Below, piece after piece: positions 18,056 to 27,189 of a stretch of 64,000 bases of DNA. The DNA lies in assembly GCA_963843145.1 (NCBI GenBank), contig CAWJJC010000005.1, forward strand, positions 64,001-128,000, given 5' to 3'. Below the pieces are notes generated by a model. It saw nothing but the letters and a program-made list of their open reading frames with translations. It did no database searches and was not told where the DNA came from. A program made the translations under genes and the position numbers. Origin of the DNA: an uncultured delta proteobacterium (lineage in GTDB: Bacteria; Desulfobacterota; RBG-13-43-22). Each line of letters starts with the position of its first letter. Within the stretch, counting starts at the first letter, position 1.

Positions 18056-18680
18056 TCAAACAAGCACCGGGCCTGCCGAGCAAGTCGTCCCTGTAGCAGC
18101 AAGACCGGCCGTGCAATCATTTTGCGCGCAATCACCTTGCGTGCAATCTCGACTTGCCGTAGGACCCGCAACGCAATCCCGAGTTACGTCCGAACCCGCA
18201 CTGCAATCAAGGAATGTGCCTGTTGGAGCGCCACCACAAGTGCAACGTCCTCCGCCGCCGGTCCCTGTTCCCAGTTCCCGGTCCCGGTCCCTGTCCCAGT
18301 CCCGGTCCCAGTTCCCGTCCCGGTCCCAGTCCCGGTCCCTGTCCCGGTCCCGGTCCCAGTTCCCTGTCCCGGTCCCTGTCCCAGTCCCGGTCCCAGTCGT
18401 CCCAGTCCCGGTCCCAGTTCCCGTTCCTGTCCCGGTCCCGGTCCCAGTTCCCGTTCCTGTCCCTGTCCCGGTCCCAGTTCCCGTTCCTGTCCCTGTCCCA
18501 GTCCCTGTCCCGGTTCCCGTTCCCGTCCCGGTTCCCGTTCCCGTTCCCGGTCCCGGTCCCAGTCCCGGTCCCAGTTCCCGTTACTCCACTTCCAGCTTGA
18601 CATGCTCCGCTCCCTCTGGCCGTCTCACCCAGGAAGACCACGGTCGGAGATTCGTACTTGTTCTCACTTTTCTTTTCCAT
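18056..18680 (-). CDS. RiPP precursor copy 1 (leader + ~54 Thr-Gly + Cys-rich core); net +1 frameshift inside the repeat as sequenced
   Basis: Leader identical to copy 2; core identical except PVLV vs PSLV; GGAGGT RBS; 625 nt from ATG to TGA. Confidence 0.8.
18257..18581 (-). repeat. Hexanucleotide tandem repeat ACN-GGR (Thr-Gly), about 54 units
   Basis: Mainly ACC/ACT/ACA-GGG and ACG-GGA units; four 7-nt units and one 3-nt unit. Confidence 0.95.
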
Positions 18681-19183
18681 AACTTACCTCCGTGGAAGCT
18701 GCTTTGGATTGTATCGTGAAGTTCTTGCTTGATTCAGGATTCCGCACTCGTTTACCACTTCGGTGACAATTATTGCCCGTTATTTTTTCTCCGTTTCCGT
18801 TCTTTAGGAACGAGTGATGGGTATATTGTTTTTCACTCAAATTGTAGATCAGATATTGGCTTGGGGTTTCAGTGATCAAGAGAATCTCATGAGCAGCCTG
18901 CCGCTGATTGAGAAAATCCACGATCATCTTGTGAGCCCGATACCACTCCATGCTTTTTGGAAAAAGGTTTTCTTGTCCCAGGGGCTCATAATAGATAAAG
19001 GTTAGAATGGTAAATAGTAACTTTGCAGACCCTGCGGCAGCGAATCCGGGAAATCGACCCGGCCGAAGCGGCTAACCGGTGCAGCGCCGCTTACCACCAG
19101 GGAGCATTGCCCCCCTATGGATTATTAGGTCAATAGTTGCCCGTGGAAATCCAGGCGAGTAAAGCTATCACCATTTTTAGAGT

Positions 19184-20452
19184 TTATTCTCCGCGCAGCC
19201 CTGATGATGAAAACATCCAGGCAGAAACCTCTCTCCCCCGATGCGCCTGATGGACCGCTTTTAGAACCGATTGATCACGGCGGAATAGCCGAAGAGGCAT
19301 ACTAGTATAGCAGACTATCGGGCGGCCTAGTCGCAATAAATAACACAGATATATCTTCGGCGAAGACACCGACACTGGATAGAAGCGGGCCATATACTCC
19401 CTTGGCGGAAAAGCTTTTTTTAACACAGCCAGGACTTTACCTTTAATCCCTTTAACTCTTTTTATCTTTGAAAGTGAGCCGATTCTAATTCCAATATACT
19501 GATCTGACGGGCTTATATCAAAAATTTGTTCCAGGGCCTCATCAAAAAAAACAGACTGGTAATCATCGGGCTTTATCGCCGACATTATGTTTTCCGGCGC
19601 CGCCGCTCCCAGCAATTCCTGGACGAGAAGCAACATCAAGTAAACACACTTTTGGCCGCCCCACCGGATGGCCCTCTCAATTAGTACTTGCCAGTCGATT
19701 TTATCTGCGGATGTTTTTATCAATCTGGCGATATCACATAAAGGAATCAAATCTAATCCGGTCTCCAGATTGTCGCAAGCATGGATACACAAATGAAAAA
19801 ATAAATCCTCCGGAGACAAAGCGCGGACCTCTACATTATCCACTTTGATAAGACACGCTCTCTCCCACAACCCGTCAAGATCTACTTTAATGGGTCTATT
19901 CGGAATCACTATATTCCAGTGAAGTTCTATTATCGTCCCTCTATTATTCGCAAAAGGCGGCAGATGATGAATAATCTTTAATGTGTTCTCCCAGGCAGGA
20001 AAATCCTGTTTATAGCCTAGAGTCAGTAGTATCCGCCCAGCCCTGACCAGATCTTCTTCTTTCACTAAAAGATCCATATCAACCATTGGCCTTAAAGCAA
20101 TATCCCCATAGATGCTTTTTGCAAGCGAGAGACCTTTGAGCGCAATGACCGGCAGTCGGTTGTCGGTCAGAGACTTAAGAACTATTGAGGCATCAAAAAA
20201 AAGGCTCGTGTTCCTAGTCGCAACATCTCGGTATACGTCCCTGAGTCTGTTTCTGGCCTCAATGGGGATAAGCTCAGTCGAAATGTTACGGGATTTTATT
20301 TCTCGAAAGAACAATCCCCCCACTTTTAAACGCAGCGCACAATCTACCAGACTCTCCGCATCAGCCGAAGATAATTTTCCCAGCCTGGCTTCTGGTATTC
20401 TTCTACCTGAAAGAAAATCGCATATAAGTCGGCCCCTCTCTTTTTTTTCCAT
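19184..20452 (-). CDS. Nucleotidyltransferase family protein (NTP_transf_5-like)
   Basis: Motifs VIALKGLSLA, YGDIALRPMVDMDLLV, IELHW, HLCIH. Confidence 0.88.
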   Translation of the reverse strand: MEKKERGRLICDFLSGRRIPEARLGKLSSADAESLVDCALRLKVGGLFFREIKSRNISTELIPIEARNRLRDVYRDVATRNTSLFFDASIVLKSLTDNRLPVIALKGLSLAKSIYGDIALRPMVDMDLLVKEEDLVRAGRILLTLGYKQDFPAWENTLKIIHHLPPFANNRGTIIELHWNIVIPNRPIKVDLDGLWERACLIKVDNVEVRALSPEDLFFHLCIHACDNLETGLDLIPLCDIARLIKTSADKIDWQVLIERAIRWGGQKCVYLMLLLVQELLGAAAPENIMSAIKPDDYQSVFFDEALEQIFDISPSDQYIGIRIGSLSKIKRVKGIKGKVLAVLKKAFPPREYMARFYPVSVSSPKIYLCYLLRLGRPIVCYTSMPLRLFRRDQSVLKAVHQAHRGREVSAWMFSSSGLRGE

Positions 20453-20475
20453 ACTAAGTCCTCCAGTCCCTGCGG

Positions 20476-26193: not shown

Positions 26194-26486
26194 CCGTCAT
26201 TCTTCTCTCCAGTTCCAGCCCCACAAACCCGTTTTCAAGCAGCGTGTCAACGAAGGCGGCGATCTCTTGCGAAGGCCGCCTCCGGAGTTTCTTCAAATTT
26301 GTTTTTGATCTCCGTCACGATATCCTCGATGCTTCTCTTGCCGTCCATCCGTTTCCATACCGCTACACCGACAGGATTGGTTCCCACGGCATCAGCCGTA
26401 TCGGGATTGAAGAGTACGGCCCAGTCGTCGAACTCCTCCCGGAGCACAACGATGGGATTGGCAATCGGTTTATCCGTTTTTTTCAT
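26186..26486 (-). CDS. scmD: PqqD-family RiPP recognition element (ScmD-like); one frameshift near 26270 as sequenced
   Basis: NPIVVLREEFDDWAVLFNPDT, NPVGVAVW, DG; another frame supplies QEIAAFVDTLLENGF with a stop overlapping the scmE start. Confidence 0.85.
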
Positions 26487-26703
26487 GGATCATTTCCTCT
26501 ATTTATTACCTTAGTGGCAACGAAGCCGCCTGAAATCCCGTCAAAGACATGAGTCCCGTCAATCTCGAGCGATCGTTCCGGAACATCCTCGCCATAACGC
26601 TGCTTTCGGCTTGGAAAAATTATAATCGCTGAAAATAGCGTTAGCGTGTCAGGCAGCCGAAGTGCGTTCTCCTACCTGCTGCTGCCGGCCGTGCAATCAC
26701 CTA

Positions 26704-27189
26704 TCAAACAAGCGACGGGCCTGCCGAGCAAGTCGTCCCTGTAGCAGCAAGACCGGCCGTGCAATCATTTTGCGCGCAATCACCTTGCGTGCAATCTCGA
26801 CTTGCCGTAGGACCTGCAACGCAATCCCGAGTTACGTCCGAACCCGCACTGCAATCAAGGAATGTGCCTGTTGGAGCGCCACCACAAGTGCAACGTCCTC
26901 CGCCGCCCGTCCCCGTCCCGGTTCCCGTCCCCGTCCCGGTTCCCGTCCCCGTCCCGGTTCCCGTCCCCGTCCCCGTTCCCGTCCCCGTCCCGGTTCCCGT
27001 CCCCGTTCCCGTCCCCGTCCCGGTTCCCGTCCCCGTCCCGGTTGCAGTCCCGGTTCCCGTCGCCGTTCCCGTTCCAGTCCCCGTTCCCGTTACTCCACTT
27101 CCAGCTTGACACGCTCCGCTCCCTCTGGCCGTCTCACCCAGGAAGACCACGGTCGGAGATTCGTACTTGTTCTCACTTTTCTTTTCCAT
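26704..27189 (-). CDS. RiPP precursor copy 2, 161 aa: YxxP leader, 31 Thr-Gly/Thr-Ala dipeptides, Cys-rich DCxxG-repeat core
   Basis: Intact ORF with GGAGGT RBS, directly upstream of the PqqD and radical SAM genes; leader [11 protein letters not shown] resembles RRE-binding motifs. Confidence 0.88.
26905..27090 (-). repeat. Tandem repeat encoding (Thr-Gly)n, 31 units, largely the 18-mer ACGGGGACGGGAACCGGG
   Basis: Read directly from the sequence. Confidence 0.95.

Follow-up and report, generated by a model that had tools for sequence, protein, structure and literature searches.

A probable SynChlorMet-type radical SAM peptide cassette with a divergent ScmA-like precursor and a Thr-Gly tract in an uncultured Desulfobacterota genome

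A SynChlorMet cassette and its genes

The DNA analyzed here, a stretch of 64,000 nucleotides from an uncultured delta proteobacterium (Desulfobacterota, RBG-13-43-22; assembly GCA_963843145.1, contig CAWJJC010000005.1, positions 64,001 to 128,000; hereafter the window), contains a genuine gene cluster for a Cys-rich modified peptide, of a type that is known computationally but has never been characterized. We read it as a SynChlorMet (SCM) cassette for a ribosomally made, post-translationally modified peptide (RiPP) with a divergent ScmA-type precursor, and we give this reading, including the pathway that we infer for it, a probability of about 0.7. A preliminary description of the same DNA had proposed a SynChlorMet-type radical S-adenosylmethionine (radical SAM) cassette in which the small open reading frame (ORF) upstream of scmD is the precursor. 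Its coordinates and its gene list on the minus strand were confirmed by ORF analysis and hidden Markov model (HMM) scans (Table 1), and the leader and Cys-repeat ORFs that it suggested seeking near scmD homologs were found in 14 of 18 homologous SCM loci, either beside scmD or between the peptidase gene and scmC. The literature searched yielded no paper on the SynChlorMet cassette and, as that description had also stated, no characterized product.

Three of the SCM enzymes exceed their NCBIfam cut-offs, in agreement with the same description. ScmE matches TIGR04250 over its full length at 550.1 bits (cut-off 400), and its nearest solved structures are the peptide-modifying SPASM enzymes SkfB, PqqE, CteB, and SuiB. 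ScmF scores 522.7 bits against TIGR04251 (cut-off 400), with BlsE and SkfB as its nearest solved structures. ScmC was recognized in residues 336–511 of a fusion protein (TIGR04249, 168.9 bits, cut-off 125), and the expected match of the nucleotidyltransferase to NTP_transf_5 was also obtained. ScmD as assembled falls just under its cut-off (97.8 bits against TIGR04248, cut-off 100) and covers positions 1–67 of the 84 in the model. The genes from scmD to scmC had been described as overlapping at their ends; this stands for scmE/scmF (4 nt) and scmF/scmC (20 nt), and holds for scmD/scmE only if a 1-nt frameshift in scmD is read through.

The fusion protein has a putative Sec11/SipW-like S26 peptidase at about residues 20–98 and the P-loop kinase-like domain of ScmC at about residues 230–528. 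Its N-terminus scores 43 bits against TIGR02228 (E 4e-11), below the cut-off of 51.85, and gives a weak match to SEC11C (E 0.0022); an S-M-x-P box (GPSMNPT) and a downstream His (VVHRII) are both present. An AlphaFold 2 model of the ScmC domain (predicted local distance difference test, pLDDT, 82.5) has phosphoenolpyruvate carboxykinase (PEPCK) as its best PDB matches, with E of about 3e-7 and template modeling (TM) scores of 0.45–0.52. Walker A residues G138, G140, and K141 are invariant among the 11 sequences of our ScmC alignment (A6). HMM scans detected no peptidase domain in the ABC exporter.

A precursor family beyond ScmA

The upstream precursor, copy A, has a leader spanning residues 1 to ~26 with the motif Y9-E-S-P...L17-G, and Cys at positions 27, 100, 102, 113, 123, 133, 138, 143, and 154. 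It scores 61.3 bits (E 3e-17) against our family profile A4, and the 18 residues that separate Y9 from C27 are typical of the family. The family consensus consists of a K-Y-E-S-P-x-L-V-P-L-G-E leader followed by ten-residue C-[TS]-A-G modules. A profile made from three relatives recovered 175 proteins at E ≤ 0.01 from a set of 5.8 billion proteins; those among them that bear a name are all annotated as hypothetical, and no Pfam domain occurs in any of the 175. With a 73-sequence profile, 737 cluster representatives were recovered at E ≤ 1e-3, 75 of them at E ≤ 1e-10.

Both parts of the precursor follow a recognizable grammar in the family. The leader pattern [YFW]xxPxxxx[LIVM] lies within the first 70 residues of 252 of the 263 family sequences inspected. 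Over 251 family cores the first Cys stands 18 residues past the Tyr in 190; 651 of the Cys-to-Cys spacings are of 10 residues, 262 of 11, and 97 of 12. Position +3 is Gly in 92%, position +1 Thr or Ser in 60%, and position +6 Ala in 49%.

Copy A misses the ScmA model (TIGR04252), yet 13 of 73 family members match that model at E ≤ 0.01 (best 1.1e-5), and for this reason we regard copy A as a divergent ScmA and not as a new kind of precursor. TIGR04252 also found no match in the window's own genome (best E 0.5) or in five genomes with distant cassettes. Judged by these comparisons, the precursor is a divergent relative of ScmA that lies outside the existing model, within a large unnamed family. 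The preliminary description had called the substrate unlike known RiPP precursors, a view that did not survive: TIGR04252 exists, and copy A has the leader and the Cys core that are usual in a family of hundreds of representatives. Only the Thr-Gly tract discussed below is unusual in a precursor that is otherwise ordinary for its family.

Conservation and distribution of the cassette

The gene set of the window recurs elsewhere. In L025, a locus from a metagenome-assembled genome (MAG) labeled Terriglobia whose ScmE is 84% identical, the gene order is the same and the fused peptidase-ScmC protein aligns as one high-scoring segment pair. The peptidase and ScmC parts occupy two overlapping ORFs in L019. 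In a further subtype (L020, L022, and L024) a gene of its own encodes the peptidase, and the precursor lies between it and scmC, not upstream of scmD. NTP_transf_5 is conserved in 11 of the 18 homologous loci, and genes for the peptidase, the ABC exporter, and NTP_transf_5 accompany the cassette in distant relatives.

ScmE exceeded its cut-off in 5 of 41 relatives' genomes searched, the window's own genome included, and in 15 of 301 genomes sampled from the phylum; it was not found in the three same-genus genomes searched. Cassettes were present in MAGs labeled Terriglobia, Lentisphaerae, Anaerolineales, Nitrospirae, and Aminicenantes, among others, and the SCM system is thus widespread.

Several cassettes hold two or three precursor genes: three in L031, two each in L029 and L030, with further cases in L115, L126, L128, L137, and L140. 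L029 also contains two ScmE/ScmF pairs. A related genome has a second SCM cassette, L021 (G016:C18:258500-276386), in which scmE, peptidase-scmC, the ABC exporter gene, and the NTP_transf_5 gene are each in 2–4 pieces and the precursor is frameshifted. L021 is either a pseudogenized cassette or the product of an error-rich assembly.

Comparison with known systems

The SynChlorMet system as defined by its models (TIGR04248 ScmD, TIGR04249 ScmC, TIGR04250 ScmE, TIGR04251 ScmF, and TIGR04252 ScmA) has the same gene order as the window and a small Cys-rich precursor adjoining scmD. The window departs from it in a precursor that misses the ScmA model and carries a 62-residue Thr-Gly insert, in the fusion of ScmC to a putative S26 peptidase, in the conserved ABC exporter and NTP_transf_5 genes, in the frameshifted scmD, and in a direct repeat of 1.1–1.3 kb that holds a second, broken precursor.

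Sactipeptide and ranthipeptide systems (SkfB, AlbA, CteB/SCIFF, and PapB) pair Cys-rich precursors with radical SAM/SPASM enzymes guided by a RiPP recognition element (RRE), as is proposed for the cassette, and models for StsB, PapB, AlbA, and SkfB give partial matches in the cassette proteins. The SPASM enzymes of those systems carry fused RREs, whereas here the PqqD-like RRE is a separate protein, two SPASM enzymes stand in tandem, and the core is made of C-[TS]-A-G decapeptide modules; any thioethers in the product are putative. Pyrroloquinoline quinone (PQQ) and mycofactocin biosynthesis (PqqD/PqqE and MftB/MftC) likewise have a small peptide processed by a radical SAM/SPASM enzyme together with a discrete PqqD-type chaperone, and the PqqD, PqqE, and MftC models match cassette proteins at sub-threshold scores. 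The cassette differs from both in its repetitive multi-Cys precursor and in its exporter, kinase, and peptidase, and its output is likely a secreted peptide, not a cofactor.

Lasso peptide leaders are of the YxxP type and are bound by a PqqD-like RRE. Clusters for phosphorylated and phosphoglycosylated lasso peptides (paeninodin and pseudomycoidin) resemble the window in combining an HPr-kinase-like enzyme with a nucleotidyltransferase; in the passages of PMC8498205 that treat them, the precursor receives a phosphate from an HPr-kinase homolog, and this phosphate is glycosylated by a nucleotidyltransferase. The window differs in having no lasso cyclase and no B2 protease.

Proposed pathway

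Given the gene identities and the precedent of the lasso kinase/nucleotidyltransferase pair, we hypothesize a pathway in which the discrete RRE protein ScmD would bind the conserved Y-x-x-P...L-G leader, with the first Cys at its fixed distance of 18 residues past the Tyr, and would present the C-[TS]-A-G-x-x-A-x-x-x modules to ScmE and ScmF. These two enzymes would most likely form cross-links from Cys, as in sactipeptides or ranthipeptides. ScmC, as a putative P-loop kinase of the PEPCK/HprK fold, may phosphorylate a hydroxyl residue, and the NTP_transf_5 enzyme may extend or nucleotidylate the phosphate that ScmC had added, by nucleotidyl or glycosyl transfer. The Sec11/SipW-like S26 domain would cut off the leader, possibly at the conserved small-residue sequence G-S-G right before Cys 1, and the ABC transporter would export the product. 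What the analysis itself establishes is which genes are present, the place of the precursor in its family, the conserved gene set, where the Thr-Gly tract lies and that it is unique, and the frameshifts; each chemical step is a proposal.

The recognition step was examined by co-folding, a check that the preliminary description had proposed for the leader and ScmD and that was run on the ScmD of a relative. With leader residues 1–40 this pair scored 0.45 against 0.00 for the best of three controls, which points weakly toward binding. In calibration, 58 of 80 solved complexes and 2 of 110 mismatched pairs came up to the mark, but only 7 of the 80 had scores of 0.60 or less. Runs agreed in at least 88% of contacts, with a partner pLDDT of 56. 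Because RRE–leader complexes have already been solved, the pass may reflect likeness to solved structures.

Several points weigh against the reading of this locus as an SCM cassette with the pathway set out above. No precursor was seen in 4 of the 18 loci; contig ends truncate L023 and L028, but not L035 or L036. Copy A gives no match to TIGR04252 (cut-off 35 bits) at E ≤ 10, whether searched as the whole peptide, the leader, or the core. C-termini in the family are variable, and copy A, unlike the lasso precedent, has no C-terminal Ser. The match of the HprK_rel_A HMM to ScmC is weak (E 3.5e-4), and no HprK chain is among the top structure matches listed for the ScmC model; that HprK shares the PEPCK fold and that the lasso nucleotidyltransferase is PF14907 are assumptions of ours. 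The type of cross-link, the target of the kinase, and the cleavage site are guesses. Finally, a true frameshift in scmD would probably cost this copy of the pathway its leader recognition and leave it dead.

Integrity of scmD and the second precursor

As assembled, the scmD ORF encodes 79 aa and stops at 26247, while the C-terminus of the PqqD domain (EIAAFVDTLLENGFVGLELE...) runs on in another frame and ends 8 nt within scmE. Fifteen scmD orthologs from other loci are uninterrupted ORFs of 91–110 aa. Contigs from four public soil or sediment metagenome runs were aligned to positions 17500–28000 of the window; the runs were used as contigs only, and none held more than 0.37 of the sampled words. 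At the shift point, contigs from runs X2, X3, and X6 omit one letter at 26270 or 26272, with depths for the omission of 7.38/7.38, 10/14.9, and 9.12/9.12, respectively. Since these contigs are without the extra base, close relatives have an intact scmD. The extra base lies outside any long homopolymer and is either a mutation or an assembly error.

The preliminary description had also listed a second precursor, which proved not to be one ORF. The leader and the Cys core of this copy B score 43 and 41 bits against profile A4 in different frames, and at least one frameshift is needed to read them as one peptide. Its tract (18258–18572) is degenerate, with a period of 6 nt over 315 nt and 5% insertions and deletions (indels). 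The full pathway proposed in that description is thus not intact in the assembly, where scmD and the second precursor are both frameshifted.

Copies A and B lie within the two copies of a direct repeat of 1.1–1.3 kb that flanks the genes from scmD through NTP_transf_5; the repeat, of which the preliminary description had made no mention, also includes the 3' end of the PMT_2-like gene. The unique flanks within the repeat are 97–100% identical between its copies. One contig of an independent metagenome (X2 record 9) spans 18607–19155 and crosses the repeat edge at 19021 in the copy-B arrangement, so the duplication exists outside this assembly. Apparent joints of 8.6–8.9 kb in the metagenome contig alignments are no deletions; there the alignment passes from one repeat copy to the other. 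Beyond copy B, a stretch of 900 nt contains two dispersed repeats (17449–17894) that abut it and have copies of 84–90% identity on contigs C27, C12, C15, and C10 of the genome; small ORFs in this interval presumably represent transposase C-terminal remnants. We suggest that copy B is a decaying duplicate, which would have arisen by local duplication of 1.1–1.3 kb beside transposase-like debris.

The chief rival to a working SCM cassette is that the whole cassette is an inactive relic, with a true frameshift in scmD, a pseudogene in copy B, and unconstrained drift as the source of the Thr-Gly expansion. We consider this a serious possibility, although one with well under even odds. The scmD insertion is missing from the contigs of relatives in three metagenomes, and its position outside a long homopolymer argues against a typical long-read error. 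Copy B, with its frameshift and its 5% indels, is abutted by transposase-like, dispersed-repeat debris, the related genome G016 has the visibly fragmented L021, and ScmE was not found in the three same-genus genomes searched. On the other hand, the remaining cassette genes are full length when compared with L025, and one lone indel could be an error of assembly in this MAG, which is probably based on long reads. Moreover, the 185-nt repeat of copy A is in frame with 0% indels despite 11% divergence between its units, which suggests continued selection on the peptide.

The Thr-Gly tract

In the alignments the tract follows the first module (C27-Q-A-G-S-G-V) and precedes C100, within a part of the peptide whose length differs among relatives. 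The preliminary description had seen a three-part substrate, a reading that does not hold: the tract does not separate leader from core but belongs to the core itself, where it opens a Cys–Cys gap (Cys 27 to Cys 100) of 73 compared with a family maximum of 43. In copy A its DNA is a tandem repeat with a period of 18 nt (185 nt, 10.3 copies, 89% matches, 0% indels) and is in frame. With 0% indels here and 5% in copy B, the contrast is what one would see if selection kept copy A in frame while copy B decayed.

Such a tract was found in none of ~305 relatives, comprising 120 listed homologs, 143 further representatives, and 42 segments from 36 metagenome loci. The runs that they do have are short: PGPGPGPG in P0110, GAGAGA in P0273, and GSGGSGGSGG in L126. 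Within the 5.35-Mb genome, (TG) runs of at least six occur only in copies A and B, and the tract is far beyond chance. P0110, a protein of 108 aa, has its PEPGPGPGPG run at the site that matches the tract, and Pro-Gly is the other-frame reading of a repeat of the ACN-GGN type. A search of the 5.8-billion-protein set with the whole 161-aa peptide returned 29 matches, all to unrelated TG-rich proteins, and is uninformative on Thr-Gly tracts in the family.

The coding strand of both tracts (26895–27100 and 18250–18585) forms a tandem G-quadruplex motif with 28 and 49 runs of three or more G (G3+), respectively; the opposite strand has no such runs. For the copy A tract, the predicted minimum free energy is −112.9 kcal/mol when G-quadruplexes are allowed and −58.3 kcal/mol when they are not. 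On these predictions the motif is a plausible cause of repeat instability. We read the 62-residue tract as the outcome of a lineage-specific expansion, in which a G-rich repeat of 18 nt grew within the length-variable stretch from module 1 to module 2; in copy A it would have been tolerated and kept in frame.

A function for the tract itself is unlikely in our view, and less likely than the death of the cassette. As a functional element it could serve as a flexible spacer, as an acceptor with many sites for phosphorylation by ScmC and modification by NTP_transf_5 (or by the neighboring PMT_2-like glycosyltransferase), or as a G-quadruplex that tunes expression in mRNA or DNA or serves as a hypermutable switch. 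The in-frame tract of copy A, its richness in Thr near a kinase, a nucleotidyltransferase, and a PMT_2-like protein (itself a sub-cut-off match, E 2e-4), its 28 G3+ runs with a large predicted G-quadruplex stabilization, and the PGPGPGPG of P0110 at the same site would all be consistent with this. None of the 120 and 143 family proteins or the 42 metagenome segments shares the tract, however, the region is length-variable in relatives, and the PMT_2-like gene is conserved with the cassette in 0 of 18 loci. A bolder form, in which selection has acted on the (Thr-Gly)31 tract as a G-quadruplex-forming spacer prone to slippage, one that would render the precursor length- or phase-variable and offer ~30 Thr acceptors to ScmC and NTP_transf_5, seems more doubtful still. 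If it were true, the product, phospho-glycosylated in the manner of a mucin, would differ from every radical SAM RiPP described.

Least probable of all is that the tract, the flanking duplication, or both are artefacts of MAG assembly: the genome is a MAG in 32 contigs with 6.9% contamination, in other runs the short-read contigs end at the tract and at the edges of the repeat, and the exact tract length rests on this assembly, no run holding more than 0.37 of the sampled words, but a contig from X2 crosses the 19021 edge in the copy-B arrangement, both copies have a tract with differing internal structure, copy A is perfectly in frame, and contigs from X3 (record 23) and X6 (record 30) pass from unique sequence into the tract, one on each side, before stopping there, which disfavors an artefact of this assembly alone.

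Genomic surroundings

The source genome is a MAG of 5.35 Mb. The cassette has a GC content of 0.555 and the window one of 0.542, so that GC gives no sign of foreign origin. Rfam matched nothing across 15000–30000 of the window, and promoter and terminator scans yielded nothing exceeding shuffled sequences, with one weak promoter-like site at 27246–27217.

Table 1 Features of the cassette, of its repeats, and of a related cassette subtype (positions in the window unless a locus is named)
Feature	Position	Strand	Basis or remark
Cassette	18056-27189	minus	ORFs and HMMs
PMT_2-like membrane protein	27440-29398	-	Pfam PMT_2, E 2e-4, below Pfam cut-off
Precursor copy A, ScmA-like, 161 aa, Cys-rich	26704-27189	-	ORF, family profile A4
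(Thr-Gly) tract, residues 34-95 of copy A (62 residues)	26905-27090	-	29 TG and 2 TA dipeptides
scmD (PqqD/RRE), 1-nt insertion near 26270-26272	26186-26486	-	HMM, frame comparison
scmE, radical SAM/SPASM	25063-26193	-	TIGR04250, Pfam Radical_SAM and SPASM
scmF, second radical SAM/SPASM enzyme	23903-25066	-	TIGR04251
S26 peptidase/ScmC fusion, 528 aa	22336-23922	-	TIGR02228 (sub-cut-off) and TIGR04249
ABC exporter (permease and ATPase)	20476-22299	-	HMM matches
NTP_transf_5 nucleotidyltransferase	19184-20452	-	PF14907, 193 bits
Precursor copy B, frameshifted	18056-18680	-	leader and core segments in different frames
Direct repeat, upstream copy	26552-27857		3' end of PMT_2-like gene, precursor A, 152 nt beyond
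Direct repeat, downstream copy	17904-19021		internal deletion of ~350 nt, longer TG tract
Precursor in other cassette subtype	L020 10925-11101; L022 4407-4616; L024 6041-6298

The surroundings of the cassette are rich in glycosyltransferase genes (13159–16994 and 27440–36001), with GT4, GT9, and GT2 genes, an epimerase gene, and the gene for the PMT_2-like protein; a methyltransferase-GT2 fusion lies at 29506–31023. None of these neighbors, the PMT_2-like and GT2 genes included, is conserved with the cassette in the 18 loci, and the PMT_2-like neighbor was not found in the three same-genus genomes searched. At 15521–16215 on the minus strand, a PIN-domain protein (PF01850, E 5e-13) overlaps an upstream 90-aa ORF without a family match; the two are probably a toxin-antitoxin pair.

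Implications

The analysis provides the SCM system with a broad precursor family whose leader motif and module grammar are defined, together with an extended conserved gene set in which the SCM enzymes are joined by a putative S26 peptidase, an ABC exporter, and NTP_transf_5. The precursor family and the extended gene set make heterologous reconstitution straightforward, although this locus would be a poor first choice for it because its scmD is broken. The Thr-Gly expansion is a curiosity, which may tell more of repeat instability in a tolerant region of the core than of chemistry. The finding matters more broadly for the precursor family and the extended gene set than for this broken copy.

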